Source of the DNA: Candidatus Eiseniibacteriota bacterium
Lineage (GTDB): Bacteria; Eisenbacteria; RBG-16-71-46
Reading direction: 5' to 3'
Length of the DNA: 64,000 nt
NCBI GenBank assembly: GCA_033853925.1
Contig: JAWOLC010000052.1
Coordinates: 20-64,019 of the forward strand
Of the stretch, positions 15,567 through 39,008 are shown piece after piece. Position 1 is the first letter of the stretch, and every line of letters starts with the position of its first letter. The notes beneath the pieces are model-generated. The model was not told the DNA's origin. It was given only the letters and a program-made list of their open reading frames with translations, and searched no databases. Position numbers and translations under genes: made by a program.

Positions 15567-15653
15567 GGATCTCTCCGATGTCTCTCGGATGCCGCCATTC
15601 AGCGTACAGCCCGCTCGGGGATCGCGGGGCGAGAGCGGCAAAAGGAGCACCGT

Positions 15654-24724: not shown

Positions 24725-26024
24725 GGTACTCCCCGCGGACGACGCTGGACGGATCCACGGCATGCACGAGGTCGAGGAGCACCTGGCCGGGCTCGAGGAG
24801 CGCGCCCACCTCGCGATACTCCCGGGCGCGGTTGGCCACCACCACCACCTCGCTGCTCCGCACCACCTCGAGCAGGTCCCCGCGCAGGCGCTCGGGCAGG
24901 TAGGGGAGCTCGTCCTCGACGTAGCGCCGGTTGGCCCCCAGCACTCGGGCCATGTCCAGGTTGGGGTCGTGGAGGAGCACGCTGTAGCCCTTGCCCACGA
25001 GCGTCCCGACCACTCGCAGGATCGGGCTCTCGCGCAGATCGTCGGTCTCGGACTTGAAGGAGAGGCCGAGGACACCCACGTGCCGGCGCTTCAGGCGCTC
25101 GATGTGCTGGATCGCCTCGTTCACGTGGCGCTCGTTCGAGCGCGGGATGGCGTCGATGATCGGCAGCTCCACGCCCAGCACGCGCGCCCGTTGCTGCAGG
25201 GCCCGCACGTCCTTCGGCAGGCACGAGCCGCCGTAGGCGAAGCCCGGCTTGAGGTAGTACGGGCTCAGGTTGAGCCGCTTGTCGCGCACGAAGAGGTCCA
25301 TCACCAGATGGCTGTCGATCCCCTCACGCTTGCAGATCCGTCCGACCTCGTTGGCGAACGCGACCTTGAGGGCGTGGTAGGCGTTGTTGACGTACTTCAG
25401 GATCTCCGAGGTGCGCAGCGGGATCACCACGGTCTCGCCGCCGATGTCCGCGTAGAGACGGCGCAGGATCTCCGCGCTGCGCTCGTCGTCGGCGCCGATC
25501 ACCGTCAGCTCGGCGTCGAAGAAGTCGCGGATGGCCGTGCCCTCGCGCAGGAACTCGGGGTTGTAGGCCACGCCGAAGTCGCGGCCCGCCTTCAGCCCGG
25601 AAGCCTCCTCCAGCGCCGGAGTGAGCAGGCCCTGGACGCTCCCCGGGAGCATCGTGCTGCGCATGACGACGACGGTGTAGGTGCGCGTGGCCCGCAGGGC
25701 GTGGCCCACCTCCTGCACGGAGCGCAGCACGTGCGCGAGGTCGAGGCTGCCGTCGGGCGCGCTGGGAGTCCCCACGCAGACCAGCACCGCCTCCGCGCCG
25801 GGCAAGGCCTCGTCGATGCGGGTCGTGGCGGTGAGGTGGCCGGCCGCGCGCGCGGCGGAGATCAGCTCCCCGAGGCCGCGCTCCACGATGGGGCTGTCGC
25901 CACGCCGAATGCAGTCCACCTTGTACTCGTTCGTGTCGACGCCCACCACCTCGTGCCCCCGGCTCGCCAGGCAAGCCGAGCACACGGAGCCGACGTACCC
26001 CAGTCCCACCACCGCCACACGCAT
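24708..26024 (-). CDS. UDP-glucose/GDP-mannose 6-dehydrogenase family (nucleotide-sugar dehydrogenase)
   Basis: ORF 24708..26024; MRVAVVGLGYVGSV Rossmann fold; catalytic-cysteine region GGSCLPKD; GGGAGGTG SD. Confidence 0.9.
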   Translation of the reverse strand: MRVAVVGLGYVGSVCSACLASRGHEVVGVDTNEYKVDCIRRGDSPIVERGLGELISAARAAGHLTATTRIDEALPGAEAVLVCVGTPSAPDGSLDLAHVLRSVQEVGHALRATRTYTVVVMRSTMLPGSVQGLLTPALEEASGLKAGRDFGVAYNPEFLREGTAIRDFFDAELTVIGADDERSAEILRRLYADIGGETVVIPLRTSEILKYVNNAYHALKVAFANEVGRICKREGIDSHLVMDLFVRDKRLNLSPYYLKPGFAYGGSCLPKDVRALQQRARVLGVELPIIDAIPRSNERHVNEAIQHIERLKRRHVGVLGLSFKSETDDLRESPILRVVGTLVGKGYSVLLHDPNLDMARVLGANRRYVEDELPYLPERLRGDLLEVVRSSEVVVVANRAREYREVGALLEPGQVLLDLVHAVDPSSVVRGEYHGFVW

Positions 26025-26159: not shown

Positions 26160-27695
26160 TCAGGGAGCCGCGTCCCGGCTCGCGCCCCACCCCGGGACGT
26201 GCCACACCTGGACGCCCGCGAAGCGGTACTCCTGCGCCTCCGGATGGCGGGCGGCGAGAATCCGCGCGAAGACGCCCCCTGGATCCAGGTCCTCCGCACG
26301 GCTGAGCACGATCCAGGTGCCTCGCGCGCCTGCCAGCTTGCCCTCCAGCTCTTCGCTCAAGCGTCGCGGTCGGTCCGCGTAGCCCAGCCAGAGCTGGTCG
26401 ACGGGAAGCGGCCCACGATAGTAATAGTAGATCGGCTCCTGCGCACCTAGGGCCAGGACCTTCTCGCCGAGCCGGCCTTGCTGGCGGACGAGCTGCGCCG
26501 CCGCTCGGTAGTCCTCCTTGCCGTAGCGCGGGTCGAAGTAGAGGTGCGCGAGCGACACCGCCCAGAGCAGGCCGACGGCGAGGCCGGCTCCGACCTTCCA
26601 CCCCCTGCGCAGGTCCGCCAGCCCTGCGGCCAGCACGAGCAGCAGCAGCGGCGCCCCGACCGCGAGGTAGCGCGGGTTGAAGACCTTGAAGTTGCGCAGG
26701 GCGAAGAAGCTGACCACCACGATGGGCACGCCGAGCCAGAGGAGCGCGTCCAGGAGGCGCCGGCGCCGCACCAGGCCCCGGAGCCCGGCGAGGCCGAGGA
26801 AGCCGAAGACCAGGGTGGTCGCGACGAGCTCGGGAACGTGGCGGCCCAGCACGGCCGTCGGCGAGCCCGACTTCAGCTCGCGCAACGCCGGCCCGAGCGA
26901 GTACCCCACCGTCAGGGCGTGAAGGGCGAAGGGAATGGCCGCCGCGTGGAACGTGGTGGCGCCCCGCAGAGGCGCCTGCCCGGCGGGCGCCGCGCGTCCG
27001 AGGTGCAGCCGGCTCCAGTCCCAGGTACGCGTCATCTGCGGCACCCACGGCAGGAGGATCAGGGCCAGGAGAACGGCGAGCGCCACCAGCCCCAGCGCGC
27101 GCCAGAGTCCGCGCGACCGATTCGCCGCCCGCGGCACCGAGGGATCGCCGGCCGACTCCCCGGCGCCGACGAGCCACCAACGCAGGTGCAGCGGGCCCAG
27201 GAGCGCGAACGAGAAGTTGGCGAGCAACCCCGCGCCCGCCGCGAGGAAGTAGCCGACGAGGCGCAGGAGCGGGCGGCGGACGGGCCCGGCCAGAACGGCT
27301 CCGGCCAGGCAGGCGCAGAGGACGAGCAGCATGTAGTTGCGCGCTTCCTGCGAGTACCAGACGAGGAACGGCGAGCCGGCGGCCAGCCAGGCGGCCGGGA
27401 CCGCGGTCTCGCGGCCGAGCCAGCGCGCCGCGAGCCAGGCCAGCGCCGGCACCACCATCACGCCGAACAGCATGGATGGCGCGCGGAGCGCCCACTCGGA
27501 GTCGCCGGCCACCGCGCCCCAGGCGTGGAGGATCAGCGTGTAGAGAGGTCCGTGCACGTTCTCGAGCAGCGTGGCGAGCGGCAGGCGTCCGCCGAGGTCG
27601 GCGCCCAGCCAGGTGAAGGCCTCGTCCACCCACAGGCTCTGCGCGCCCAGGTGGAACACCCGCAGGGCGAGGGCCGCCAGCGTGGCGGCGAGCAC
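26160..27695 (-). CDS. GT-C glycosyltransferase, ArnT/PMT_2 (GT83/GT39-like) family
   Basis: ORF 26160..27695 (GTG start); motifs SLWVDEAF and HGPLYTL; multiple transmembrane helices; N-terminus may extend further via a non-canonical start. Confidence 0.75.
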   Translation of the reverse strand: MLAATLAALALRVFHLGAQSLWVDEAFTWLGADLGGRLPLATLLENVHGPLYTLILHAWGAVAGDSEWALRAPSMLFGVMVVPALAWLAARWLGRETAVPAAWLAAGSPFLVWYSQEARNYMLLVLCACLAGAVLAGPVRRPLLRLVGYFLAAGAGLLANFSFALLGPLHLRWWLVGAGESAGDPSVPRAANRSRGLWRALGLVALAVLLALILLPWVPQMTRTWDWSRLHLGRAAPAGQAPLRGATTFHAAAIPFALHALTVGYSLGPALRELKSGSPTAVLGRHVPELVATTLVFGFLGLAGLRGLVRRRRLLDALLWLGVPIVVVSFFALRNFKVFNPRYLAVGAPLLLLVLAAGLADLRRGWKVGAGLAVGLLWAVSLAHLYFDPRYGKEDYRAAAQLVRQQGRLGEKVLALGAQEPIYYYYRGPLPVDQLWLGYADRPRRLSEELEGKLAGARGTWIVLSRAEDLDPGGVFARILAARHPEAQEYRFAGVQVWHVPGWGASRDAAP

Positions 27696-27804: not shown

Positions 27805-28719
27805 CTAGTAGGCTCCCTCGCGGGAGAGCACCGCGGGGATCGTCCGGACGAGGATCTTCAGGTCGAGCCAGAGGCTGCGGTGCTTGATGTACTCCAGATC
27901 CAGCCGCATCCACTCCTGGAAGCCGATGCGGCTCCGCCCACTGATCTGCCAGAGGCAGGTGATGCCCGGGAGCACGTCGAGGCGCCGAAGCTGCCAGGGC
28001 TCGTACTGCACGACCTCCTCGGCGATCGGCGGGCGCGGGCCCACCAGGCTCATGTCGCCCTTCAGCACGTTCCAGAGCTGCGGAACCTCGTCGACGCTGG
28101 TGATGCGCAGCCAGCGACCGATCGTCGTGACGCGCGGGTCGCGCGCCATCTTGAACACCGGGCCATCCGTCTCGTTCAGGTGCGAGAGGGAGTGCCGGTG
28201 GCGATCGGCGCCGTCCACCATGGTGCGCAGCTTGTAGAACGTGAACGGCTTCGCGCCCCGCCCGATCCGCACGGACTTGTAGACCACGGGGCCACGCGAC
28301 CCGAGCTTGATGAGGACGGCGGCCAGGAGGAGGAGCGGCGAGGCCACGACCAGGCCGACGAGCGCGCCGCAGACGTCCAGACCGCGCTTCCCGGCGCGCA
28401 GGTACGGGCCACGCTCGGGCGGGATCTGGTGCGCGGCGCGGAGGCGCACCACCGAGGCCCTCGCAGGCAGGAGGCCGGGCCAGGTGGTCGCCCCATTCCC
28501 GTTCCCGGAGCCGTTCAAATGAGCCCCGGCTCCGTTGTGCAGGGCCGCGGCCTTGCCATTGGTCGCGATCGTCGCGTGCCGGTCGTCGATGACCAGCGGT
28601 GGCCTGGCTCCGTGCTTCCCGTCCTTGGGCGTGTCATGCAACACCTCATCGGCCGGCAGCGGCCATCCTCTGGCACTGGGAGCCGCGCTCTTCTGGGAGG
28701 CGAGGATGTTGGGCTCCAT
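27805..28719 (-). CDS. Polyprenyl-phosphate sugar phosphotransferase (bacterial sugar transferase, WbaP/PssY C-terminal type) - priming enzyme
   Basis: ORF 27805..28785; catalytic motifs DVLKGDMSLVGPRP and ISGRS; start taken at MEPNIL (28719) because 28785 lies inside a strong hairpin and uses a rare TTA codon. Confidence 0.8.
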   Translation of the reverse strand: MEPNILASQKSAAPSARGWPLPADEVLHDTPKDGKHGARPPLVIDDRHATIATNGKAAALHNGAGAHLNGSGNGNGATTWPGLLPARASVVRLRAAHQIPPERGPYLRAGKRGLDVCGALVGLVVASPLLLLAAVLIKLGSRGPVVYKSVRIGRGAKPFTFYKLRTMVDGADRHRHSLSHLNETDGPVFKMARDPRVTTIGRWLRITSVDEVPQLWNVLKGDMSLVGPRPPIAEEVVQYEPWQLRRLDVLPGITCLWQISGRSRIGFQEWMRLDLEYIKHRSLWLDLKILVRTIPAVLSREGAY

Positions 28720-28755
28720 GATGCTGCTCTCTGTTGCGTTGCCCGTTAAGCAGGA

Positions 28756-28781
28756 GCCGAGGGCGTAGAAACGCCCTCGGC
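28756..28781 (-). promoter_or_regulatory. Perfect 11-bp GC-rich hairpin (GCCGAGGGCGT-ttct-ACGCCCTCGGC) in the 5' leader of the priming sugar transferase
   Basis: Inverted repeat read in sequence about 35 nt upstream of ATG 28719. Confidence 0.45.
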
Positions 28782-29655
28782 TCAACGCTCTCGCCTAATG
28801 CAGATGCACTGGGTCCCGGTCTCGAAGACCACGAGCAACAGGGGGGGAAACAGCAAGTTGTCGATCCTCAGAAGCGTGTCCTGGGCTCGGTAGGTGGCCG
28901 GGCCGCACTGGCGACCCTCGATCTGGCCTCCCCTACGGCGAACCGCTGTAGCAACGCGTCGCTAGCGCGCCCTCCTCTGGGGACTTTGCGGGGCCCTGAA
29001 CTCCAGGCCTAGGTTAGCAAAACTATGACAGTCGGCGCAAGTCAAACGTTCGGCTCGCACTGATCGCCTAAGACGCTGCCGGACAAACGGATAGCCGATG
29101 GGGCCCTACCCGCTTCCTCCGCTCCGGGCCGAGGCGGCCCCGGACCCACCCCTCCGCACTCGTCCCCGAGGCATGCTTCGGGCGCTCGTCCGAGGCGGGC
29201 CCGGCGCTGGTCGTCGTGCCCCCGCTCGCAAGGCCGCCTTCCCTCCATGGCCACGATGTCCAGCCGGGACCATGGAGGCGCGCGGGGCGCGCGCGAGAAG
29301 GTGCTCTGCAAGACGCAGCCGCGAGTCCGCGGCCGAGCCGGGACGTCGCGCGCCGTGCTCGAGCGTGGACGCGGGGATGACCGCGGGCCGCTCCGGATGC
29401 CGCCCGCGCGAGAGAGGAATGGTCTCCGGAGAAGCACCCCCGCGGGCTCGGAACGAACGCGGAGCGCAGCGCGCCGCTGCGCGCCGCCGGCGGCGGGGTC
29501 ACGCCCGTTGCGTCCGGCGCGGTCGGATCGCGGGCGAGGAAGTCGGGAGCCGCATCCGCGGGAAGGCGTTCCTTGCCGCCATCGGTGTGCGGTTGCTAGA
29601 GTCCCGCGAGCATGACTCCCGACCTCGGCCATTTCCTCCGGATCGCGCGGCCTTC

Positions 29656-30330
29656 ATGATCGGCGGCCTGCGGATCTCCTGCGTCATTCCCTGCTACAAC
29701 GAGGAGAACGGGATCCAGGAAGTCCTGGGGCGCATGCCTCCGGCGGTGGACGAGGTCGTGGTCGTCGACAACAACTGCACCGACCGCACGGCGGAGGTCG
29801 CGAGCGCCCGCGGCGCGCGCGTCGTCGCCGAGAGGACGCCCGGCTACGGAGCCGCCTACAAGACCGGGCTCGGCGCCGCCACGGGGGACCTGGTCGCCAC
29901 CATGGATGGGGACGGCACCTATCCGCCGGAGGAGATCCCGCGGCTGGTGGGCGTGTTGCTCGACCGGCAGTGGGACTTCCTCTCCGCCAGCCGCTTCCCC
30001 CTCGCCGACCCGCGCGCCATGGGAGCCAGCAACCGTCTCGGCAACTGGGTCCTGACCGTGGCCGCGGGCATGCTGTTCTTCAAGCCGATTCGCGACAGCC
30101 AGTCCGGCATGTGGGTGTTCCGCCGCGCCGCCCTCGAGCGGATGCGGCTCACCTCCGACGGCATGGCCTTCAGCGAGGAGATCAAGCTGGAGGCGCTGCT
30201 CCGAGGCCTGCGCTTCGGCGAGGAGCACATCCCCTACGGGACTCGCGTGGGAGAGGTCAAGCTGCAGAAGTGGCGCGACGGCTGGAACAACCTCCTCTTC
30301 CTCCTGCGCAAGCGTCTCGGTTGGCTCTGA
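29656..30330 (+). CDS. GtrB/DPM1-like polyprenyl-phosphate glycosyltransferase (GT2)
   Basis: Internal ATG of ORF 29098..30330; MIGGLRISCVIPCYNEE and DGDG motifs; the upstream part of the ORF has low GC3. Confidence 0.8.
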   Translation: MIGGLRISCVIPCYNEENGIQEVLGRMPPAVDEVVVVDNNCTDRTAEVASARGARVVAERTPGYGAAYKTGLGAATGDLVATMDGDGTYPPEEIPRLVGVLLDRQWDFLSASRFPLADPRAMGASNRLGNWVLTVAAGMLFFKPIRDSQSGMWVFRRAALERMRLTSDGMAFSEEIKLEALLRGLRFGEEHIPYGTRVGEVKLQKWRDGWNNLLFLLRKRLGWL

Positions 30331-30622
30331 GGCCTGGCGCCCCGTGCGCCGCGGGCACGGAGATCGCTGCCGCAGCGACCTCGGCCGCGTGAGCCCGAAC
30401 GCCCTGCCTCGCCGCCACGAGGCGCGGCCCACCACTGCGAGACGCTGGGCTCGCGGGTTGCGCTTCGAGGCGACCGACATCCGGCTGGGGTAAGATATCG
30501 TCGTGCGTGACTGCGGGCCCGAGGCTCGGGGGATCGCCGTGCCTCACGCCCGGTTCCAGCGCTGGGCGCGCCTCTGGATCGTCCCGGCCGACCAGGGGGA
30601 GCGGAGGAGAGCGGAGAGGAAG

Positions 30623-32092
30623 ATGGCACTCCAAGGGGCGGGGCGCACCCGACTCGCGCTCGGCGCGATCTTCGTGCTCGCGCTCCTGGTCCGCGCCGCC
30701 GTGGGCTACATGGCCCGGGGACACGGCGAGATGGAAGGCCTCGCGGACCGTTACCAGGAGGAGGCGTACGCGCTGGCCGCCGGATACGGCGCGGTGCGCC
30801 CGCTCGCGACCCGGCCTCCCGAGGTGAACCTGATCCGCCTCGCGGACAGCCTGGAAGCGCGGGGCGCCAAGCTCACGCCCCGGACGGCGCCGCCCATCCA
30901 TCGGGCCCTCTGGCGGCCCTCGACCATGCATCCGCCCGGGTACGCCGTCTTCCTCTTGGGGATCTATCGGCTGCTGGGCGAGCCGCTCATCCCCAAGGCC
31001 AAGGTCGTGCAGGTTCTGCTCGACGCCGCCTCCATCCTCCTCGTGTACTCCATCGGCAAACGCTTCGCCGGCCGCACGGTCGGGCTCCTGGCTGCCACGG
31101 CGGCGGCGCTGTCGGCGCCGGCGGCCTTCCTCGCCACCTCGAGGGTGGCCGACTCCCTGTGCCCCGCGCTCTACGTCCTCGTGTTCTGGCTGTCGGTGCG
31201 GGCCCTCGAAACCCGACGCGCGCTGTGGTTCGTCGCGGCGGGGGCCGCCTGCGGCATCATCTCCCTCATGCGCCCCGACTACCTGGTCTACCCGCCCTTC
31301 CTCTTCCTGGGCGCGCTTCTCTTCCTCCGGCAGCCGCTGGCGGCCATCAGGGGGACCGCCTTCTTCGCGGCGGCGATGTTCCTGGTGCTCCTCCCCTGGG
31401 GACTGCGCAATCAACGCGTCTTCGGGACGTTCACGGTGAGCTCCACCTGCGGGTGGGCGGGGCTCTACCAGACGATCGGACAGTTCAAGAATCCGTACGG
31501 AATCGTCTTCAGCGACGCCCTCATGGACGCGCTCGCCCGGGACGCCGGCTTCGACAGCTTCGACGATCCCGCGGCCAACAGCTACTTCAAGGGGAAGTTC
31601 CTGGCCATCGTCCGGGAGAATCCGGCCTTCCTGGCCGGCGAGGCGCTACGGCGCATCCCCATGGCCGTGGCCCCCATGTATCGCTGGGGCTACGTGAACG
31701 CGCACTACGAAGCGGGGCACGGCTTCTACGACTACCTGGCGCGCGAGGGGCTGAGCACGGGCCAGGCCGTGCGGCGTCACCCCCGAGAGCTGCTGCTCGC
31801 CTACTGGGACCGGCTGCTCTCCGGGGCGATCTCCCTCGGGCTCTTCGTGGCCAGCGTGGCGTTCCTCGTGGCCGAGCGGCGGCGCTGGCGGACGGCCGTG
31901 CTCCTGCTCCTGCCCTACGCCACGATCGTGCTGACGCACCTCGGCTACAACATGGGGGCCCGCTTCCTCGCGCCGGCGCTCTTCTGCCAGCTCGTGGTCG
32001 CGGCCTACTGGATCGTGCGCCTGTCCGGCTCGGAGCCCGTGACGCTCTGGGAGCCCGGTCGGCCTCCGTCCGTGGGCCCGGCGCGCGCCTAG
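30623..32092 (+). CDS. GT-C type integral-membrane glycosyltransferase (ArnT/PMT_2-like)
   Basis: 489 aa from MALQGAGRTRLALGAIFVLALL of ORF 30503..32092; GGAGAGGAAG SD; motif MHPPGYAVFLLG; at least 10 predicted transmembrane helices. Confidence 0.7.
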   Translation: MALQGAGRTRLALGAIFVLALLVRAAVGYMARGHGEMEGLADRYQEEAYALAAGYGAVRPLATRPPEVNLIRLADSLEARGAKLTPRTAPPIHRALWRPSTMHPPGYAVFLLGIYRLLGEPLIPKAKVVQVLLDAASILLVYSIGKRFAGRTVGLLAATAAALSAPAAFLATSRVADSLCPALYVLVFWLSVRALETRRALWFVAAGAACGIISLMRPDYLVYPPFLFLGALLFLRQPLAAIRGTAFFAAAMFLVLLPWGLRNQRVFGTFTVSSTCGWAGLYQTIGQFKNPYGIVFSDALMDALARDAGFDSFDDPAANSYFKGKFLAIVRENPAFLAGEALRRIPMAVAPMYRWGYVNAHYEAGHGFYDYLAREGLSTGQAVRRHPRELLLAYWDRLLSGAISLGLFVASVAFLVAERRRWRTAVLLLLPYATIVLTHLGYNMGARFLAPALFCQLVVAAYWIVRLSGSEPVTLWEPGRPPSVGPARA

Positions 32093-32341
32093 GAGGCACG
32101 AAGGCGTCGAGGCGTTCGGCCGCCAGGCGAAGCGCCGCGCTCTCCCTCGCGGCACACGCGGCTTGCCGCAGGGCCGGGGCTCGCGTAGCCTGACCGCCGC
32201 GCGTGGTCGTCCGCTCGCGTGGCCGTGCCGTCCGCCGGTTCCCGGCAGCGCGCCGTGCCGGCGGCTCCCGCGACGGAGAGCCAGAGGCGCCCCGCGAGCC
32301 TCCACCGCGCGGGTTCGAGATCACGTCGGGAGACCAGGCAG

Positions 32342-33529
32342 ATGACCAGAACAGGCGCCAATCCCGCGACGCACGGGCAGGATCGCTCGCTCCCGGCCGC
32401 TCTCCGGCTGGAGAGCCCGGCGTTCGTCACGCGACCCACGATGCCGGACCTGAAGGAGTACGCGCGGCTCCTGGAGGAGATCTGGGGCTCGCGGTGGCTC
32501 ACGAACCAGGGCCCCTTCCACCAGCGCCTCGAGCAGAGGCTGGGCGAGTACCTCGGCGAGGATCACGTCAGCCTGTTCTGCAACGGCACGATCGCTCTCC
32601 TGGTGGCCCTGCAAGCCCTGCGGATCAACGGCGGACAGGTCATCACGACGCCCTTCACCTTCCCCGCCACGACGCACGTGCTCTTCTGGAACCGGATCGA
32701 GCCGGTCTTCTGCGACATCGATCCCGACACCATGAACATCGACCCGCGGCAGATCGACGGGCTCATCGGCCCCGACACGCGGGCGATCCTGCCGGTGCAC
32801 GTCTTCGGCCAGCCCTGCGACACGGAGGCCATCCAGGAGATCGCCACCCGCCACGGCTTGCACGTGATCTACGACGCGGCGCACGCCTTCGGGGTGCGCT
32901 GGAAGGATCGCTCCATCACCGCGCAAGGCGACATCTCGATGCTGAGCTTCCACGCCACGAAGCTGTACTCGAGCATGGAGGGCGGGGCGTTGGCCTGTCG
33001 CTCCGCCGAGGTGAAGCGGCGCATCGACTCCCTCAAGAACTTCGGCATCGCCGACGAGGAGACGGTGATCGCCCCGGGGATCAACGGCAAGATGATCGAG
33101 GCCTGCGCGGCCTTCGGCCTCCTGCACTTGAACATGGTGGACGAGGAGATCCGGCGGCGGCGCGCGGTCGCCGCGAGATACACCGAGCGCCTCACGGGCC
33201 TGCCCGGCCTCAACCTGCTTCCCGCGCGCGCCGGCGTGGTCGAGAACTACTCCTATTACCCGATCCGCATCCGGGCGAGCGAGTTCGGCGCCTCGCGCGA
33301 CGAGCTGCACCGGTATCTGCGGGCGGGGAACGTCGTGTCGAGGAAGTACTTCTACCCGCCGGCGAACCGCTATCCCTGCTACGCGAAGCTGCCCAGCGCG
33401 GCGCCCGCCTCTCTGCCCGTCTCGGAGAGGGTGGCGCAGGAGATCCTCTGCCTCCCCATCTACGGCGAGCTGAGCCTCCAGGCCGTGGACGGGGTGTGCG
33501 ACATCATCGACTGGGTCAGGAGGAGCTGA
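32342..33529 (+). CDS. DegT/DnrJ/EryC1 sugar aminotransferase, ArnB-like (UDP-4-keto-sugar aminotransferase)
   Basis: ORF 32219..33529; LSFHATKLYSSMEGG (PLP lysine) and GSRWLTNQGP correspond to ArnB motifs; start 32342 after a GGGAGA SD (alternative 32441). Confidence 0.85.
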   Translation: MTRTGANPATHGQDRSLPAALRLESPAFVTRPTMPDLKEYARLLEEIWGSRWLTNQGPFHQRLEQRLGEYLGEDHVSLFCNGTIALLVALQALRINGGQVITTPFTFPATTHVLFWNRIEPVFCDIDPDTMNIDPRQIDGLIGPDTRAILPVHVFGQPCDTEAIQEIATRHGLHVIYDAAHAFGVRWKDRSITAQGDISMLSFHATKLYSSMEGGALACRSAEVKRRIDSLKNFGIADEETVIAPGINGKMIEACAAFGLLHLNMVDEEIRRRRAVAARYTERLTGLPGLNLLPARAGVVENYSYYPIRIRASEFGASRDELHRYLRAGNVVSRKYFYPPANRYPCYAKLPSAAPASLPVSERVAQEILCLPIYGELSLQAVDGVCDIIDWVRRS

Positions 33530-34506
33530 TGCCGGGCACGCCGTCGCCGGCGAAGCCGGTCGAGCTGTCGGCGGTGATCACCTGCTACTACGAGGAGCGG
33601 ACGATCGCCGAGTTCCACGAGCGGCTCGTCGCCGCGCTGCGCGACCTGGGGGCGACGTTCGAGATCGTGTACGTGAACGACGGCAGCCAGGACGCCACCT
33701 TCCGCTGCCTGGCCGAGATCTTCGCCCGGGACCCGGAGGTGGCCTGCGTGCTGGATCTCTTCGCCAACTCGGGCCAGCTCGCCGCCATCACCGCCGGCCT
33801 CCAGGAAGCCAGCGGGCGGGTGATCCTGAGCATGGACAGCGACCTGCAGCTCGATCCCGCGGAGATCCGCAACCTCTGGGGCAAGTACCGGGAGGGCTTC
33901 GACGTCGTCAGCGGCTTCCGCGAGAAGCGCGCCGACTCGCGGCTGCGCACCGTCCCCTCGAAGATCGCCAACGTCATCATGCGGCGGGCCAGCCACTCGC
34001 GGCTGAGCGACTTCGGCTGCACGTTCAAGCTCTACAACGGCGACCTGGTCCGCGCCTTCGGCTTCGGCCCCCACCGCCCGTTCAATCCGGTCCGCGTGGT
34101 GAGCCACGCCGGCCGCTGCGTCGAGATCCGGGTCACGCATCGGCCCCGGCAAGTCGGCAAGTCGGGCTGGACGTTCCGCAAGCTCTGGAACTACCAGATG
34201 GAGCACGTCGTGCGCCTGAGCGAGAAGCCCTTCCAGTTCCTCTCCGCGGCCTGCATGCTCCTCGCGGCGCTCATCGTCGTGCGCCTGATCCTGGCCTGGT
34301 TCGTCGACTTCCACTTCGTGAGCCAGGTGACGAACGGCCTCCTGCTGAACGTGCAGGTGGCGAGCACCCTCGTCGTCCTCTTCGTCCTGGCCGTGATGGG
34401 CGAGTTCGTGATCCGGGTGTTCATCTCGACTCAGGCCGAGCCCCGCTACATCGTGCGCACGAGGCTCCGCAAGCCCGCCGCGGAGGGCAGCGATGGAGCG
34501 CGCTGA
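33529..34506 (+). CDS. ArnC-like undecaprenyl-phosphate aminosugar transferase (GT2 with two C-terminal TM helices)
   Basis: In-frame part of ORF 32203..34506 from MPGTPSP (AGGAGG SD); VITCYYEE, DSD and DxxRxxxVxxHxxR-like regions; C-terminal hydrophobic helices; 1-nt TGATG overlap. Confidence 0.85.
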   Translation: MPGTPSPAKPVELSAVITCYYEERTIAEFHERLVAALRDLGATFEIVYVNDGSQDATFRCLAEIFARDPEVACVLDLFANSGQLAAITAGLQEASGRVILSMDSDLQLDPAEIRNLWGKYREGFDVVSGFREKRADSRLRTVPSKIANVIMRRASHSRLSDFGCTFKLYNGDLVRAFGFGPHRPFNPVRVVSHAGRCVEIRVTHRPRQVGKSGWTFRKLWNYQMEHVVRLSEKPFQFLSAACMLLAALIVVRLILAWFVDFHFVSQVTNGLLLNVQVASTLVVLFVLAVMGEFVIRVFISTQAEPRYIVRTRLRKPAAEGSDGAR

Positions 34507-35152
34507 GCGGCCGACGGGCGTCGCCATCCTGGGCGCCGGGGGGATGGGCCGCGAGGTGTACTGGTACCTCGCCACCGCGGGCGTCGGCCCCCTGGTCTTC
34601 GTGGACGACGTGAGCGGCATCCGCACCGTGCGCATGGGCGCGGTCGACGTCCCGGTCGTCGCGGACTGGACCTTCTCGGCGCGCGAAGGCCGCCCGGCGG
34701 TCGCACGCTTCGTGGTCGGCCTGGGCGACCCGCGGGGGAAGAGGCGGATGGTGGAGCGAGCCCTGGGCGCCGGCCTCCAGCCGATCCCGACGATCGTCCA
34801 TCCGCGCGCGTGTCTCGCCGCGGGTGACGCGGTCCTGGGCCTGGGCGGCGTCCTCTGCCCGGGCGTGGTCGTCAGCACGAACGTGCGCATCGGGGACTAC
34901 GTCATCTGCAACTGGAACGCCTCGATCGGGCACGACGCCGTGATCGGCGACTTCGCCACGGTCAACCCGGGGGTCTGCGTCTCGGGAAACGTGCACGTCG
35001 CCGAGGACGTCCTCCTCGGGGCCGGCGCGGTCGTGCGCGAGCGCATCCGCATCGCGCCGGGCGTCGTGGTGGGCGCGGCCGCCTGCGTCGTCAAGGACAT
35101 CGCCGAGCCCGGCTGCGTGGTCGTGGGCGTGCCGGCCAAGAAGCTGACCTGA
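34493..35152 (+). CDS. PglD/NeuD-like sugar N-acetyltransferase (hexapeptide left-handed beta-helix)
   Basis: ORF 34493..35152; N-terminal GAGGMGREV Rossmann-like domain plus hexapeptide repeats. Confidence 0.8.
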   Translation: MERAERPTGVAILGAGGMGREVYWYLATAGVGPLVFVDDVSGIRTVRMGAVDVPVVADWTFSAREGRPAVARFVVGLGDPRGKRRMVERALGAGLQPIPTIVHPRACLAAGDAVLGLGGVLCPGVVVSTNVRIGDYVICNWNASIGHDAVIGDFATVNPGVCVSGNVHVAEDVLLGAGAVVRERIRIAPGVVVGAAACVVKDIAEPGCVVVGVPAKKLT

Positions 35153-35309
35153 GCCGCGGCGCGCCGCCCGCGGGCTCGCCGGCGACCTCGGCCGCGGCAC
35201 CGGCGCCGAGGCCTCTGCGGCGCCGGCTCCGTCCGGCCCGCGCGCCTTGCCGCTTCCGGCGGGCGGTTGCTACACTGGTGTCCGCGCGATTGCGCCTCCC
35301 TGCCGGCCG

Positions 35310-35400
35310 GTCGTGGGCCGGAACCCGTGGCCGGCGACGCCTCGGGGCCGATGGGACCGCAGCGCCCAGGGTGGCCGAAGGGGTGGGTGTGGCCGATAAC
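35310..35400. repeat. Four copies of GTGGCCG(R) in two closely spaced pairs within the 450-nt leader upstream of the Wzy-like gene
   Basis: Read in sequence: GTCGTGGGCCGG, CCGTGGCCGGCG, GGTGGCCGAAG, TGTGGCCGATAA. Confidence 0.35.
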
Positions 35401-35603
35401 CGTCTTTCGAGGGGCGCGGTCGGGCTCGCCGCTCCTCCGGGAGTCCGCGCGCGGCCGCAGGAGCCGGCGAGGCGGGGCGCTCGCGGGCTCGTGGCGATCC
35501 CGGCCGCCACCGGACCCCATCATCGGGAGGGCACACCCCGGGTCATGGACGCGCCGCTCACCTCAGGACGGCCACGGATTCGACGCTTGCGCCGCGGCCA
35601 CGC

Positions 35604-37052
35604 ATGAGCCTCGCGCCACGCACACTTCGGGCGCCGCGCCCGCTGCTCGGACTGCTGAACCGCCTCGGCGCGGTCCTGCTGGTCGTGATCACCGGCGCGG
35701 TGCTCGGCCTGCAGTACATCGTGCCGAACAAGCGAGTCCTCGCCGTCCTGGCCGCCACCGTGCTGTTCGGCGTGGCCTGGCGCGTGGACATGGTGTCGGG
35801 CCTGGGCGTGTTGTCGCTCGCCCTGCCCTTCCCCCGCAACACCGTGTTCGGCAACACCAACCTCGCCTTCATCCTGCTCCTGCTCGTGCTCTGGCTGCTG
35901 CGCGTCTCCCAGAGGCAGCTCCCCCTGCCGCAGCGCACGCCCGCCGACGCGCCGATGGTCGCGATCTTCATCGCCTACGTGGTGTCCTTCTACAACGTCA
36001 CCTCGAGGGAGGCTCTCGGGCTGGGCCTCCTGCGGTTCGAGATCGTCGCCGCGACCATGTTCATGTTCGTCCTGATCACCAGGAACATCCGCTCGGAGTC
36101 GGACTTCCGGCGCCTGCTGGCGTTCCAGGCCGTCACCGTGCTGACCGTCTGCCTCCTCGCGCTCTTCGAGCTGGCCCACCCGGGCGGCACGGTCGTCCCC
36201 GGCTGGATCGGCTTCTCCGGAACCGAGAACCCCGAGATCAACCTCCACACGCTCCGCGTGGGCTCGGCCTTCTTCGACTACGAGCTGCTCGCCGAGTTCT
36301 GCGCCCTCTTCGGCCTGGTCGTGGTGTTCCTCATGATCCGCGCGGAGAACGTCAGCCTGCGGGTGATGTACGGGGGCCTCCTCCTGCTCGACGTGTTCGT
36401 GCTCTTCGCCGCGGTCACCCGGGGCGCGTTCCTCGCGCTCGCCGGGGGCCTCGCCTACTTCCTGTTCCTCGTCCGGCGGCGGCTGCGCTTCGTGCCGCTG
36501 GTGCTGGCGTCGGCCGGCATCGTGGCGCTCTTCCTGGCCATGGACTTCTACGTGAGCAACTACACGCGGTCGGGGAGCGTGGTGGGCCGGTTCACCACGG
36601 GCCCGCAGTTCAAGGGCATCGTCCCCGCGGACCGGGGCGAGACGTGGACCCTGGCCTTCACGCGCATGCTCGAGCATCCCTGGATCGGCCACGGTCCCTA
36701 CTACTCGATCATGACCGGCACGAACGTCTGGACCTGGCCCCACTGCGTCTATCTGCTGATCGCGAACAACGTGGGCCTGCTCGGTCTCGCCATGTACCTG
36801 TGGCTGTTCTGGACCCTGTTCAGGCTCTCCAAGCCGCCCACGGACGATCTGCGCCGGGGCCCCATCGCCGAGAGCTATCTGATCATCGCCCGCGTCCAGA
36901 TGGTGGTGTTCCTGGTGGACGAGATCAAGATCGACTACCTGCGCAACTCCACGTATCAGTTCCAGGTCTGGATGATGTTCGCCCTGCTCATGTCCGCCCG
37001 GCAGCTCACCCACTCCCTGCGGCCCACCAACGGTCAGTCCGTGACTCGGTAG
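35604..37052 (+). CDS. O-antigen ligase / Wzy-type polymerase family membrane protein (Wzy_C domain)
   Basis: ORF 35604..37052; 10-12 transmembrane helices; RGAFLALAGGLAYFL and HPWIGHGP typical of Wzy_C. Confidence 0.75.
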   Translation: MSLAPRTLRAPRPLLGLLNRLGAVLLVVITGAVLGLQYIVPNKRVLAVLAATVLFGVAWRVDMVSGLGVLSLALPFPRNTVFGNTNLAFILLLLVLWLLRVSQRQLPLPQRTPADAPMVAIFIAYVVSFYNVTSREALGLGLLRFEIVAATMFMFVLITRNIRSESDFRRLLAFQAVTVLTVCLLALFELAHPGGTVVPGWIGFSGTENPEINLHTLRVGSAFFDYELLAEFCALFGLVVVFLMIRAENVSLRVMYGGLLLLDVFVLFAAVTRGAFLALAGGLAYFLFLVRRRLRFVPLVLASAGIVALFLAMDFYVSNYTRSGSVVGRFTTGPQFKGIVPADRGETWTLAFTRMLEHPWIGHGPYYSIMTGTNVWTWPHCVYLLIANNVGLLGLAMYLWLFWTLFRLSKPPTDDLRRGPIAESYLIIARVQMVVFLVDEIKIDYLRNSTYQFQVWMMFALLMSARQLTHSLRPTNGQSVTR

Positions 37053-37723
37053 CGGAGCAGGGTGAAGAACGCCTCGAACGCGTCACGCCACCCGATCTTC
37101 TTGCCCTGGGCGCGAGTGCGGTAGTGGAAGTGGATGGGCACCTCGAGGATGCGCTCCCCCCGGCGGGCCACGCGCGCGGTCACCTCGGGGCAGAACTCGA
37201 AGCGCTCGCAGCGCAGGGGGAGAGACTTGAGGAGGTCGGCGCGGAAGGCCTTGTAGCCGGTGGCTTCGTCGGTGAGCCGCAACCCGTACAGCGCGTTCGC
37301 CACGAAGTTCAGGACGAGCACGCCCAGCTTGTAGTGGGTGAACGGCAGGTCGTTGCGCGGGTCCAGGTAGCGGGAGCCGTAGACCACCTTGGCCTCCCCG
37401 AGCGCGATGGGCTCCACGAGCCGCGGATAGTCCTCCGGGTCGTATTCGAGGTCGGCGTCCTGGACGATGACGATGTCGCCCTTCGCCTCGGCCAGCGCGC
37501 TGCGGATCGCCGCGCCCTTGCCCCGGTTCCTGGCATGGACGAGGAGGCGGATCGGCAGCCTCGCGGCGAGCCGGGCCAGCAGCTCGCGCGTCCCGTCGGT
37601 GGAGCCGTCGTCCACGACGATGATCTCCTTGTCCAGCGGCACGGCCACCACGCGCTCCAGGAGCCGCTCCACCGTGGAGCGCTCGTTGTAGGCCGGCACG
37701 AGGATCGAGAGCAGCGGGGCCAG
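37034..37723 (-). CDS. Glycosyltransferase family 2 (DPM1-like), probable CTG start
   Basis: ORF 37034..37699 begins at GTG inside the conserved LSILVPAYNE strand; an AAGGAG SD lies 7 nt upstream of an in-frame CTG at 37723, giving (M)APLLSILVPAYNE. Confidence 0.7.
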   Translation of the reverse strand: MAPLLSILVPAYNERSTVERLLERVVAVPLDKEIIVVDDGSTDGTRELLARLAARLPIRLLVHARNRGKGAAIRSALAEAKGDIVIVQDADLEYDPEDYPRLVEPIALGEAKVVYGSRYLDPRNDLPFTHYKLGVLVLNFVANALYGLRLTDEATGYKAFRADLLKSLPLRCERFEFCPEVTARVARRGERILEVPIHFHYRTRAQGKKIGWRDAFEAFFTLLRYRVTD

Positions 37724-37839
37724 GCGGGCGCTCCTTGTGGGGGACGGGCGGCGAGGGCTCCGAGTGGGAGATGCGAGCGCCGGATTCTAGCAGAGCGCCG
37801 CGAGGGGGAGGCAGCGCCACGGGGGCCCCTGTTGCACCG

Positions 37840-37848
37840 TGCTATAGT
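37840..37848 (+). promoter_or_regulatory. Extended -10 promoter element TGcTATAGT about 140 nt upstream of the FemAB-like gene
   Basis: TG one nt upstream of TATAGT, read in the divergent intergenic region 37724-37991. Confidence 0.45.
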
Positions 37849-37991
37849 GTCGTCGCCATGAGTGCTCCAGGCATGGCCGCAGGGCCGTCGCCGATCTCAC
37901 GGGGGCGCCGCTCGTCTCCGACCACCGCCCCCCGCCCGGCGCCCCCTCTTCCGCCCACGACCGGGTCCCCCTTCTCGAGAGGCCTCGACCG

Positions 37992-39008
37992 CTGAGAATT
38001 CGCCCGTTCATCGCCGCTGACCGCGAGCCCTGGGACGCGTACGTGCACGCCCGGGCCGACTCGCACTTCGGCCAGCTCACGGCATGGAGGGAGCTGATCG
38101 TCGAGACCTACGGCTGCCGGCCCCACTACTGGCTGGCCGAGGACGGGGACCGGATCCGGGGCGTTCTGCCGCTCTTCGAGCGGCGCGGCCGGGAGCCGGC
38201 GCTCTTCTCGGCCCCCGGAGGGCTGCTCGCGGATGACGAGGCGAGCGCGGCCGCGCTCCTCGAGCCGGCCCGCGAGGCGCTCGCCCGGGGGAAGCTGGAG
38301 TACATCGAGCTGCGTGACCAGCGCCGGGCCTGGCCGGGCCTCGAGACGAGCCAGGAGCACGTCACGATGGTGCTGGAGCTGGCGGGCGACGCCGAGGCGC
38401 AATGGCGCGCCCTGGACGGCAAGCTGCGGAACCAGATCCGCAAGTCGGAGAAGGCGGGATTCGAGGCGCGCTGGGGTCGAGAGCTGGCGCCGCTCTTCCA
38501 CGCGGTCCTGCTCGAGAACCTGCGCGATCTGGGCACGCCCGTGCGCGATCTTCCCTACTTTCGCCGGGCGCTGGAGGTCCTGGGACCGGCGGCCGACGTG
38601 CTGGTCCTGCTCCATCGCGGCGAGCCGGCCGGCGCGATGTTCGCCGTGGCGCACGGCGAGACCATGTCCGACCCGTGGGCCTCCTCCCTGCGCCGCTATT
38701 TCGCCCTCTGCCCGAACCAGATGCTCTACTGGCTGGGGCTGCAGCGCACCCTGGCCCTGGGCCTGCGCCGCTTCGATTTCGGCCGCAGCCAGTGGCACTC
38801 GAGCACCTATCGCTTCAAGGAGCAATGGGGGGCCGTGCCCGTGCCGCTCTTCTATCAGTACGCCCTGGGCCGCGCGCGTCGCCTCCCCACCCTCGAGCGG
38901 CAGAAGGCCGGCTACGCTCTGGCGGTGACCCTGTGGCGCCGGCTACCCTTGCCGATCGCCCGCCCGCTCGGCGAGCGGGTCAAGCGACTGTTCCCGGAGG
39001 TCCTGTGA
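37992..39008 (+). CDS. FemAB-like / BioF2-like acyltransferase (PEP-CTERM-locus type), probable CTG start
   Basis: ORF 38043..39008 (GTG) lacks the family N-terminus; an in-frame CTG at 37992 gives (M)RIRPFIAADREPWDAYV, which matches the family start, with a GAGAGG SD 9 nt upstream. Confidence 0.7.
   Translation: MRIRPFIAADREPWDAYVHARADSHFGQLTAWRELIVETYGCRPHYWLAEDGDRIRGVLPLFERRGREPALFSAPGGLLADDEASAAALLEPAREALARGKLEYIELRDQRRAWPGLETSQEHVTMVLELAGDAEAQWRALDGKLRNQIRKSEKAGFEARWGRELAPLFHAVLLENLRDLGTPVRDLPYFRRALEVLGPAADVLVLLHRGEPAGAMFAVAHGETMSDPWASSLRRYFALCPNQMLYWLGLQRTLALGLRRFDFGRSQWHSSTYRFKEQWGAVPVPLFYQYALGRARRLPTLERQKAGYALAVTLWRRLPLPIARPLGERVKRLFPEVL

Follow-up and report, generated by a model that had tools for sequence, protein, structure and literature searches.

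A candidate cassette for lipid-linked acetamido sugar synthesis beside a second glycosyltransferase module in a polysaccharide locus of a Candidatus Eiseniibacteriota bacterium

Introduction

A block of five plus-strand genes from an uncultured, high-GC Candidatus Eiseniibacteriota bacterium combines a sugar aminotransferase and an N-acetyltransferase with two family 2 glycosyltransferases (GT2) and a GT-C fold membrane glycosyltransferase, which raises the question of what sugar is made here, onto which carrier it is loaded and where it is used. A preliminary description of this DNA had read the block as one linear pathway ending at the GT-C enzyme. We examined the block within the whole 64,000 nucleotide stretch analysed (the window), and we lean, with modest confidence, towards two adjacent modules for extracytoplasmic glycosylation, with G3-G4-G5 (32342-35152) forming one and G1 with G2 (29656-32092) the other. 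Both lie within an extensive polysaccharide locus of the Wzx/Wzy type that also carries XrtA/PEP-CTERM-associated genes.

Results

The block contains five genes, which are numbered in order.

29656-30330, plus strand: G1, short DPMS/AglJ/PpgS-type GT2 (224 aa; PF00535, E 1.3e-21)
30623-32092, plus strand: G2, GT-C fold membrane glycosyltransferase, PMT_2 family (489 aa; PF13231, E 1.9e-11)
32342-33529, plus strand: G3, DegT/DnrJ/EryC1-family PLP sugar aminotransferase (395 aa; PF01041)
33529-34506, plus strand: G4, ArnC/GtrB-type polyprenyl-phosphate glycosyltransferase (325 aa; PF00535 and ArnC model)
34493-35152, plus strand: G5, NeuD/PglB/VioB-family left-handed beta-helix N-acetyltransferase (219 aa; TIGR03570)

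All five are borne out by third-position GC (0.93–0.97) and frame plots, and proteins translated from their starts were found exactly in the public collection, on a 64,019-bp NCBI contig; our gene models thus match those deposited. The preliminary description had placed the genes correctly and named the right superfamilies, and its family assignments hold for four of the five by Pfam and NCBIfam profile matches. The 1-nt overlap it reported is also real, with base 33529 common to the stop codon (TGA) of G3 and the start codon (ATG) of G4, while G4 and G5 overlap by 14 nt.

G3 matches PF01041 (DegT) with an E value of 1.9e-97 and has its PLP lysine at K207, within SFHATK (nt 32945-32962). It had been called ArnB-like, which gives the correct superfamily, but DesI is far closer: in the PDB, DesI (2po3) scored 223.6 bits with 36% identity over 363 aa, with perosamine synthase (154 bits) and ArnB (142 bits) among the lower matches. 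Profile searches, previously suggested as a check of specificity, again placed DesI first (312 bits, although below its curated NCBIfam cut-off of 650), followed by PseC (211) and ArnB (181).

G4 matches both the GT2 family PF00535 (E 5.2e-21) and the ArnC model NF007986 (E 3e-45), and aligns over its full length with ArnC (9hwj, 142 bits) and GtrB (109 bits). Its DSDLQ motif (nt 33835-33849), as DSDLQL, is aligned to DADLQN of ArnC, and R131, R140, S144 and R207 are aligned to ArnC R128, R137, S141 and R205; in ArnC the DXDLQ motif and this Arg/Arg/Ser/Arg set have metal-nucleotide and Und-P binding roles (PMC12690121). There are exactly two strong C-terminal hydrophobic helices (residues 241-259 and 281-299), in agreement with the earlier view of an ArnC-like GT2 with C-terminal transmembrane (TM) helices. 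The orthologous family is large (50–59% identity) and has conserved motifs, SGWTFRKL and VTNGLLLN, that differ from those of ArnC and GtrB.

G5 passes the cut-offs of both TIGR03570 (NeuD/PglB/VioB; 167.3 bits against 160.8) and PglD_N (26.8 bits against 23.4), and its His147, in IGHD (nt 34925-34936), is aligned to the catalytic His of PglD and relatives. The former PglD/NeuD-like label is consistent with TIGR03570 membership, with VioB the nearest relative in the PDB (96.7 bits), ahead of the Neisseria PglB acetyltransferase domain (88.4), PglD (60) and PerB (59.7). As G3, G4 and G1 all score below curated NCBIfam equivalog cut-offs, specificity is not fixed by profile scores.

Recurrence of the cassette in other genomes

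G3 is the opening gene of a conserved cassette. Orthologues of G3 at 54–67% identity sit immediately upstream of G4 orthologues; among the 38 metagenome loci with sufficient upstream sequence, 17 have such a G3 neighbour, of 50% identity or more and encoded on the same strand. G5 orthologues lie immediately downstream of G4 orthologues in 5 of 62 loci (48–52% identity; L087, L089, L091, L092/L093 and L142), and the full triad is present on five contigs, two of them nearly identical. Since the same arrangement recurs in other loci, the grouping is beyond chance, and the closely packed pair, extended to the triad at a minority of loci, is conserved as a cassette across several phyla. Joining an ArnC-type enzyme to a PglD-type one had been considered unusual. 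In the literature searched we found no description of this combination; in metagenomes it is recurrent.

An amine-tailoring gene, defined as a NeuD-type or LbH acyltransferase, ATP-grasp, FemAB-like GNAT or free or fused methyltransferase, was found within 3.5 kb in 32 of 51 relatives; these genes vary between loci while the aminotransferase-GT2 pair is constant. A protein of at least 430 aa with at least eight TM helices lies within 6 kb in 25 of 40 loci, and in L091 a YfhO-family GT-C with 13 TM helices directly follows the triad. In Hydrogenedentes loci a Gfo/Idh/MocA oxidoreductase adjoins the cassette, and Gmd is nearby in one lineage (L138).

These data bear on an alternative in which G3 and G5 would make a nucleotide 4-acetamido sugar for cytoplasmic GT4/GT2 repeat-unit enzymes, as VioA/VioB do, with G4 a GtrB-type Und-P-Glc or Und-P-GlcNAc synthase placed there by chance. 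The locus is rich in cytoplasmic glycosyltransferases, VioB and DesI work in purely cytoplasmic pathways, and for roughly half of the G4 orthologues the available sequence shows no aminotransferase. However, the pair keeps its order and strand in different phyla and contexts, many without polysaccharide genes, and stays fixed though its tailoring genes vary; the cassette genes overlap, and the G4 subfamily motifs are its own. We consider this alternative unlikely.

G1, G2 and other GT-C candidates

G1 has DGDG at its DXD position (nt 29905-29916), and its NCBIfam matches, to dolichyl-phosphate hexose transferase (116 bits) and AglJ (115 bits), are each under cut-off. The previous GtrB-like assignment is wrong for its architecture, because no TM helix was found in its 224 residues and its nearest solved relative is an archaeal DPMS (PfDPMS, 53 bits); G1 is instead a short DPMS-type enzyme, and a candidate alternative supplier of lipid-linked sugar to G2.

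G2 has a conserved GEME in its first outer loop (nt 30725-30736) and the MHPPGY motif noted before, with HPPGY at residues 103-107 (nt 30929-30943). Structure prediction, also suggested earlier, gave a confident GT-C model with ArnT as the nearest solved fold, although Pmt and oligosaccharyltransferases are also among the matches, which do not separate acceptor types. The nearest G2 orthologues (64–68% identity) occupy GT-C, GtrA and short-GT2 cassettes, at 50% identity a different GtrB-type GT2 comes next, and in the G2-orthologous loci examined no aminotransferase or acetyltransferase adjoins the GT-C. The linear pathway ending at G2 is thus not established, since in other genomes the orthologues of G2 are partnered by different lipid-sugar synthases; for this reason, and given at least three further GT-C-like proteins in the window, the link from G4 to G2 is only a candidate.

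26160-27695, minus strand: second PMT_2-family GT-C candidate, in a divergent operon (511 aa; PF13231, E 3.6e-8)
39543-41573, plus strand: unannotated 676-aa protein, probably GT-C-like (12 TM helices)
42604-44661, plus strand: paralogue of the 676-aa protein (685 aa; 13 TM helices)

The first of these scored 53.7 bits with an Agl23-type model and has at least seven TM helices. The 676-aa protein has no Pfam match, shares 41% identity with its paralogue and aligns with the G2 family over the PMT_2 core (hhalign probability 89%, E 2e-6); in L107, L123 and L155, remote homologues of it are found beside aminotransferase-GT2 cassettes. From sequence, G2, the second PMT_2 protein and the 676/685-aa paralogues are all candidate users of the G4 product.

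The surrounding polysaccharide locus

Four further genes in the window bear on sugar supply and acceptor.

17795-18862, minus strand: ManC-like mannose-1-phosphate guanylyltransferase (PF00483 and ManC beta-helix domain; TIGR01479, 262 bits)
27805-28785, minus strand: polyprenyl glycosylphosphotransferase, repeat-unit priming (PF02397, E 1.5e-63; TIGR03025 EPS_sugtrans, 279 bits)
35604-37052, plus strand: Wzy_C/O-antigen-ligase-family polytopic protein (482 aa; PF04932, E 1e-12; 11 TM helices)
41570-42433, plus strand: polysaccharide deacetylase, XrtA/PEP-CTERM-associated type (PF01522 and DUF3473)

The pathway primed by the glycosylphosphotransferase is the likely acceptor pathway, and from its context the Wzy_C protein would be the polymerase or ligase of the polysaccharide. 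Among the ~50 window genes there is no formyltransferase and no ArnA-type or 4,6-dehydratase-type SDR; the window encodes no 4-keto-sugar-forming enzyme and no GtrA/SMR-type small flippase. The earlier statement that ArnA and ArnD homologues are missing is accordingly right for ArnA, but the deacetylase, 6.4 kb downstream of the block, belongs to PF01522, the superfamily that includes ArnD. It is a weak candidate for unmasking the amine, and an orthologue (54% identity) occurs in L164 with no cassette within the ±10 kb examined.

In a further alternative the acceptor would be protein rather than polysaccharide, with the block's GT-C enzymes drawing on the lipid-linked acetamido sugar to O-glycosylate proteins that are secreted or sorted by PEP-CTERM. 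PMT_2, to which G2 and the second GT-C belong, includes protein O-mannosyltransferases, Pmt and oligosaccharyltransferases appear among the fold matches, the locus has XrtA/PEP-CTERM-associated genes, and PgfS, from the S. mutans Pgf model, is the second-best named NCBIfam match of G4. Yet the fold matches fail to discriminate acceptors, the window yielded no recognisable PEP-CTERM protein or exosortase, and the complete repeat-unit pathway is an obvious acceptor, and we find protein O-glycosylation highly doubtful.

Discussion

Sequence analysis of this MAG establishes the genes, their families, their catalytic motifs, the GT-C fold and the conservation of the cassette, and from these we infer the substrate, the step order, flipping, the GT-C partner and the acceptor. 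In the two-module reading, the most likely product of the cassette is an N-acetylated amino sugar, which would be loaded onto a lipid carrier in the membrane and used beyond the cytoplasm. The DesI-like, PLP-dependent G3 would aminate C4 of an NDP-4-keto-6-deoxyhexose supplied from elsewhere, most likely dTDP-4-keto-6-deoxyglucose or GDP-4-keto-6-deoxymannose, and the VioB/PglD-type G5 would N-acetylate the amine, drawing transamination forward as formylation does in the Arn pathway. G4 would then move the sugar, probably a 4-acetamido-4,6-dideoxyhexose, onto undecaprenyl phosphate at the inner membrane face, and after flipping by a putative flippase a periplasmic GT-C would add it to polysaccharide. 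Families and motifs support this chemistry, which had been predicted before. Clues to the nucleotide carrier point in different directions: DesI is a dTDP enzyme, whereas Gmd occurs nearby in L138, Hydrogenedentes loci have the Gfo/Idh/MocA oxidoreductase and the window encodes ManC, whose GDP-mannose supply would be relevant if the sugar is of the perosamine type. In the second module, G1 would act as a short DPMS-type lipid-sugar synthase with G2 as its GT-C.

The Arn pathway (ArnB-ArnC-ArnA-ArnD-ArnE/F-ArnT) of Enterobacteria and Burkholderiales places L-Ara4N on lipid A. Like the cassette, it has the order aminotransferase, polyprenyl-phosphate GT2 and N-acylating enzyme, as also seen in true arnB-arnC operons, and N-acylates a 4-amino sugar ahead of Und-P loading; G4 retains the catalytic and lipid-phosphate-binding residues and 2-TM architecture of ArnC, and G2 the ArnT-like fold. 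By analogy, the cassette is a direct counterpart of arnB-arnC-arnA, with acetyl replacing formyl. However, identities to ArnB and ArnC are just ~30–35%, scores are far under equivalog cut-offs, G3 is DesI-like, an acetyl-CoA LbH transferase stands in place of the folate formyltransferase, the ArnA decarboxylase, a dedicated ArnD and ArnE/F are absent from the window, and the context is a polysaccharide locus rather than lipid A modification. The earlier view that the sugar is probably not L-Ara4N is supported, and an Arn-type lipid A or core modification, in which a UDP-GlcA-derived UDP-4-keto-pentose would be aminated, N-acetylated in place of formylation, put on the carrier by G4, stripped of its acetyl group by the PF01522 deacetylase and passed on by the ArnT-like G2 to leave a cationic 4-aminopentose, is very improbable.

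Francisella (FlmF2/NaxD/FlmK), Bordetella (LgmABC) and mycobacteria (PpgS/Rv3632/Rv3779) have systems in which, as proposed for the cassette, a GT-C transfers an N-acetylated amino sugar from polyprenyl phosphate. The starting material there is ready-made UDP-GlcNAc or UDP-GalNAc, with deacetylation afterwards, whereas here a linked aminotransferase would form the amine de novo, and the cassette has no conserved dedicated deacetylase.

Among the nucleotide-sugar pathways VioA/VioB (dTDP-Qui4NAc), DesI, PerA/PerB (GDP-N-acetylperosamine) and PglE/PglD (UDP-diNAcBac), G3 is nearest to DesI, then perosamine synthase, and G5, which keeps the catalytic His, to VioB. Their products go to cytoplasmic transferases, but here G3 and G5 sit on either side of a polyprenyl-phosphate GT2 and are coupled to it, with no accompanying dehydratase gene in the window.

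Gtr-type three-component periplasmic glycosylation uses a GtrA flippase, GtrB and a serotype-specific GT-C (Mann & Whitfield 2016; PMC11127046). As here, it pairs a GT2 having two C-terminal TM helices with a GT-C in or beside a Wzx/Wzy locus, and the nearest G2 orthologues lie in precisely such cassettes; unlike it, the window has no GtrA homologue and the cassette embeds dedicated aminotransferase and acetyltransferase genes for its donor sugar. The cassette would be an undescribed variant of the familiar three-component/Arn mechanism, and not a new kind of system.

Gene content of the block

The block consists of five plus-strand genes, here called G1 to G5, with G3, G4 and G5 forming the cassette considered below:

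29656-30330, plus strand: G1, short family 2 glycosyltransferase (GT2), 224 aa
30623-32092, plus strand: G2, PMT_2 GT-C glycosyltransferase, 489 aa
32342-33529, plus strand: G3, aminotransferase, 395 aa
33529-34506, plus strand: G4, ArnC/GtrB-type polyprenyl-phosphate GT2, 325 aa
34493-35152, plus strand: G5, NeuD/PglB/VioB-family acetyltransferase, 219 aa

Shadow ORFs crowd the mechanical ORF list because the window has a G+C content of ~72%, and genes in the block were called using third-position GC and frame plots. Both supported the five-gene arrangement of the preliminary description, and the protein sequences of G1-G5 are identical to those on record for a 64,019-bp NCBI contig, in agreement with its deposited gene calls. 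Likewise, the 1-nt overlap previously described between the aminotransferase and the ArnC-like GT2 is exact, with base 33529 used by both the TGA of G3 and the ATG of G4, while the G4-G5 overlap is 14 nt. A second NCBI record has a 1,390-bp contig that matches 34079-35468 with 100% identity. A mechanical ORF at 29098-30330 (410 aa) was discarded as a high-GC artefact, as coding signal begins at ~29656 and the real gene encodes 224 aa. Ahead of it, 28786-29655 is an 870-bp stretch with no coding signal, situated between divergent operons (the priming transferase on the minus strand and G1 on the plus strand). A scan of 28700-37900 was uninformative, with zero promoter-like sites and a single terminator-like site, on the minus strand, which is below the shuffle count.

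Enzymes of the cassette

G3 matches the DegT family (PF01041; E = 1.9e-97, 327 bits against a cut-off of 19.8) and its PLP lysine, K207 in the motif SFHATK, aligns with the lysine of the DesI SFHATK, features that together define DegT/DnrJ/EryC1 sugar aminotransferases. Against curated models DesI (TIGR04427) ranked first with 312 bits, followed by PseC (211 bits) and ArnB (NF008658; 181 bits). Against solved structures DesI again led (223.6 bits, 36% identity across 363 aa), ahead of perosamine synthase (154 bits), DesV (148), QdtB (143), ArnB (142) and WbpE (140). The earlier label "ArnB-like" is not upheld, since DesI is ahead of ArnB in both models and structures, and with 181 bits against a cut-off of 631 G3 falls outside NF008658. 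The profile searches proposed for its specificity gave DesI rather than ArnB as the nearest relative, with every equivalog cut-off missed, including that for DesI/VioA-type dTDP-4-keto-6-deoxyglucose 4-aminotransferases (312 against 650 bits). G3 is therefore best described as DesI-like and, as judged from these scores, an equivalog of no characterised enzyme.

G4 could be aligned over its full length with both ArnC (142 bits) and GtrB (109 bits), and its DSDLQL at 103-108 corresponds to DADLQN at 100-105 in ArnC, where the D-x-D-L-Q motif of the GT-A domain binds metal and nucleotide (PMC12690121). In ArnC, R128, R137 and S141 hold the phosphate of the lipid, undecaprenyl phosphate (Und-P), and R205 holds the donor phosphate (PMC12690121); these align with R131, R140, S144 and R207 of G4, which are invariant among 29 members of the G4 family. 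Hydropathy analysis showed transmembrane (TM) peaks only at 241-259 and 281-299, C-terminal to the catalytic domain, and the ArnC alignment extends through both helices. G4 thus has the D-x-D-L-Q motif, the Arg/Arg/Ser/Arg set and the two C-terminal TM helices of the ArnC/GtrB/DPMS class, C-terminal TM helices having also been noted in the preliminary description, and is predicted to transfer a sugar from a nucleotide sugar to undecaprenyl phosphate. It lies outside ArnC proper, the Und-P L-Ara4FN transferase (NF007986; 154.6 bits against a cut-off of 529), and is ~31-35% identical to ArnC of true arn operons.

G5 scored 167.3 bits against the NeuD/PglB/VioB model TIGR03570 (cut-off 160.8), with a PglD_N nucleotide-binding domain (26.8 against 23.4 bits), an LbH domain, and H147 aligned with the catalytic His of PglD, VioB, PglB and WeeI, all as expected of this N-acetyltransferase family and in agreement with the PglD/NeuD-like enzyme first placed after the ArnC-like GT2. 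Its nearest solved relatives were VioB (96.7 bits), the acetyltransferase domain of Neisseria PglB (88.4), WeeI (69), PglD (60) and PerB (59.7).

Conservation and variation of the cassette

Homologues of G4 at 50-59% identity number in the hundreds and occur in several phyla. A scan of metagenome contigs using an alignment of the subfamily-specific C-terminal motif of G4 gave 80 loci (L-numbers below). Of the 38 loci whose upstream sequence is long enough, 17 have a G3 orthologue (54-67% identity) as the immediate upstream neighbour on the same strand, and 27 of 60 have one anywhere in the locus, while a G5 orthologue (48-52% identity) lies directly 3' in five contigs (L087, L089, L091, L092/L093, which are nearly identical to each other, and L142). 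Furthermore, 32 of 51 loci have a candidate amine-tailoring gene within 3.5 kb, encoding an ATP-grasp enzyme, an LbH acyltransferase, a FemAB-like GNAT or a methyltransferase (free or GT2-fused). This recurrence of the G3-G4 pair, or of all three genes, with tailoring genes thus indicates that the cassette is a conserved functional unit, and the neighbourhoods suggest that N-tailoring of the lipid-linked amino sugar is modular across relatives.

An ATP-grasp gene replaces the acetyltransferase in L094, L105, L107, L123, L138, L146, L153-L156, L160 and L162. The ATP-grasp enzymes of these cassette relatives bear a C-terminal extension, which at a guess is HAD-like, and are often accompanied by a methyltransferase (free, or GT2-fused and ~500 aa), an SDR and a metallophosphoesterase.

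For comparison with arn operons we used an earlier contig scan with a whole-family alignment, in which the matches listed were mostly true ArnC/GtrB at ~30% identity. The arnB-arnC operons of Betaproteobacteria share the geometry of the cassette, although identity is only ~30-35%; set beside arnB-arnC-arnA, the cassette has a DesI-like aminotransferase, and an acetyltransferase where arn has a formyltransferase. Good descriptions exist of both three-component periplasmic glycosylation and the Arn pathway (PMC11127046, PMC12690121), and a search of the full-text literature returned no description of a cassette of aminotransferase, NeuD-type acetyltransferase and GtrB-type GT2; an Actinoplanes paper among the matches was unrelated.

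Genomic surroundings

The block forms part of a polysaccharide region that spans from ~13 kb to the window end and includes:

24708-26009: UDP-glucose dehydrogenase
27805-28785, minus strand: priming phosphoglycosyl transferase
35604-37052: Wzy_C-family protein
38043-39008: XrtA/PEP-CTERM-associated FemAB-family gene
41570-42433: XrtA/PEP-CTERM-associated deacetylase (PF01522 + DUF3473)
48409-50328: XrtA/PEP-CTERM-associated asparagine synthase

The region also holds four GT4 genes, further GT2 genes, two Wzx-type flippases, and ManC-like and GlmU-like nucleotidyltransferases. By their family assignments the FemAB, deacetylase and asparagine synthase genes mark an exosortase-type exopolysaccharide locus; an exosortase or PEP-CTERM protein was not recognised within the window. 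The best named relative of the PEPCK is from Eiseniibacteriota (78% identity), followed by Bacteroidota and Ignavibacteriae, which points to an FCB-group MAG from a two-membrane organism.

The upstream edge of the region, at 12964-17103, encodes a GT5 starch-synthase-like protein and a GalT-like uridylyltransferase, together with an alternative bacterial GlmU. At 57707-62671 there is a second candidate module for a lipid-linked sugar, which we take to resemble the mycobacterial PpgS/Rv3632 pair:

57707-58867, plus strand: DegT aminotransferase (PseC 378 bits against a cut-off of 423.5; ArnB 372)
58975-59982, minus strand: LPG_synthase_TM protein
59979-60338, minus strand: DUF2304 protein
60378-61088, minus strand: short PpgS-like GT2
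61085-62671, minus strand: Wzx-type flippase

Identity of the sugar

The likeness of G3 to DesI and of G5 to VioB points to a 4-acetamido-4,6-dideoxyhexose as the predicted product. The window contains no formyltransferase, ArnA-like SDR or 4,6-dehydratase. Since the cassettes share no linked dehydratase, a housekeeping enzyme probably supplies the keto sugar. A Gmd (TIGR01472, 392 bits) at L138 3882-4877, ~3 kb 5' of the cassette aminotransferase gene and likewise in L139 and L141, is the sole dehydratase found near any cassette. The Gmd of the L138 lineage hints at a GDP-perosamine-type route, which, with ManC also in the window, is a candidate beside a dTDP-viosamine-type one. An Ara4N-like pentose is less likely because of the low similarity to ArnB and because, although Ugd is present, a decarboxylase is not; the preliminary description had likewise judged L-Ara4N improbable from the lack of ArnA/ArnD homologues, and neither a formyltransferase nor an ArnA-like SDR has since come to light in the window.

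A Gfo/Idh/MocA oxidoreductase adjoins the G4 orthologue at L001 6884-10164 (Hydrogenedentes), and also in L121 and L137; it may supply keto sugar by another route, or it may belong with the adjacent catabolic genes. A 3-aminotransferase reading of G3 drawn from this neighbour was kept as a caveat only, as the loci are few and catabolic genes adjoin. The PF01522 deacetylase was also dismissed as a dedicated ArnD analogue, being of the XrtA-associated type and retained in L164, which has no cassette within ±10 kb.

Candidate GT-C partners

G1 has zero TM helices and best matches dolichyl-phosphate hexose transferase, AglJ, PpgS and PfDPMS; by sequence it is a short DPMS-type enzyme, and its earlier description as GtrB-like fails on this difference in architecture. 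G2 matches PMT_2 and gave no match to solved chains by sequence. The structure model called for in the preliminary description, made with 32 homologues, has a GT-C transmembrane fold (pLDDT 91, pTM 0.91), and across 27 orthologues GEME (35-38) and D75, candidates for the acidic residue(s) expected in the first extracytoplasmic loop, show conservation of at least 95%. G2 falls outside ArnT proper (GT83), a group defined by membership at sequence level and a lipid A acceptor.

In the window G2 lies between G1 and the cassette. Its closest orthologues (64-68% identity) are found within classic cassettes of GT-C, GtrA and short GT2, and those at ~50% identity are followed by a GtrB-type GT2 that is only 25-30% identical to G4, overlapping the G2 orthologue by 4 nt in L164; neither an aminotransferase nor an acetyltransferase was found near these ~50%-identity orthologues. 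The partners are either a GtrB-type 321-aa GT2 or GtrA with a 237-aa GT2 (L164 10001-12396, L167 10001-12428, L168 2052-4719 and L170 257-2987), so the G2 lineage pairs with various lipid-sugar synthases, and around the conserved GT-C the synthase seems to have been replaced in different genomes. The dedicated small flippase that a Gtr-type three-component system has alongside GT2 and GT-C is lacking in the window: no GtrA/SMR-type ORF was found in the gaps, and tblastn with the L168 GtrA was negative.

Three other proteins in the window are rival candidates:

26160-27695: second PMT_2 GT-C
39543-41573: 12-13-TM protein without a Pfam family
42604-44661: paralogue of the preceding protein (41% mutual identity), 12-13 TM, without a Pfam family

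The two paralogues bracket the XrtA-type deacetylase, one per side, and hhalign matched their profile to the PMT_2 core of the G2 family with a probability of 89%. In L107, L123 and L155 aminotransferase-GT2 cassettes have remote homologues of these proteins at their flanks, and an orthologue is present in L164. For the 676-aa protein at 39543-41573, AF2 modelling from a two-sequence alignment gave an unusable result (pLDDT 44.6). These proteins probably represent an unrecognised GT-C family.

Among the wider loci, 25 of 40 encode a protein of at least 430 aa with at least eight TM helices within 6 kb, including PMT_2+TPR proteins. At L091 8162-13681 the three cassette genes are directly followed, on the same strand, by a gene for an 873-aa 13-TM protein with a match to YfhO, a GT-C family that glycosylates teichoic acids. 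LPG_synthase_TM proteins also recur near cassettes and may act as flippases. In the pathway first proposed, a lipid-linked sugar followed by periplasmic GT-C transfer, the choice of GT-C is the least secure step, given that orthologues of G2 pair elsewhere with other synthases and that rival GT-Cs occur in the window.

Functional interpretation

We regard as somewhat probable the general model in which G3 aminates the sugar, G5 N-acetylates it, G4 loads it onto undecaprenyl phosphate and a GT-C transfers it in the periplasm. The mechanism extends known logic in an expected way, but the cassette itself is widespread, modular and uncharacterised. A more far-reaching reading, which taken as a whole we consider tentative and rather unlikely, is that the G4 subfamily (SGWTF[RK]KL, VTNGLLLN) and the DesI-like aminotransferase constitute an uncharacterised class of Arn-like pathway. 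This class would be widespread in non-proteobacterial phyla (Eisenbacteria, Hydrogenedentes, Planctomycetota and others) and would use a dTDP- or GDP-sugar donor, loaded onto undecaprenyl phosphate. Its 4-amino-6-deoxyhexose would be N-tailored in a modular manner, with acetyl in the window and elsewhere acyl or aminoacyl added by ATP-grasp enzymes, acyl added by LbH enzymes, or methyl, and very divergent GT-C enzymes would decorate exopolysaccharide or PEP-CTERM-sorted proteins with it.

If the ordinary reading is right, the cassette is one more decoration module of an exopolysaccharide locus. Should the Arn-like class be real, its members would be the first GtrB/ArnC-type enzymes with a non-UDP 6-deoxy donor. 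To our knowledge the only lipid-linked monosaccharide donors established in periplasmic glycosylation are Glc, Gal, GlcNAc, GalN(Ac), GlcN, Ara4N, GalA, Man and pentofuranoses, and a lipid-linked N-acylated 4-amino-6-deoxy sugar made by the cassette would be a new donor class. In that case a large "glycosyltransferase family 2" protein family of uncultured phyla would gain a function, and the three genes would offer a compact unit for surface-polysaccharide glycoengineering. The range of tailoring genes points to a natural toolkit for altering how surface glycans are charged and acylated.
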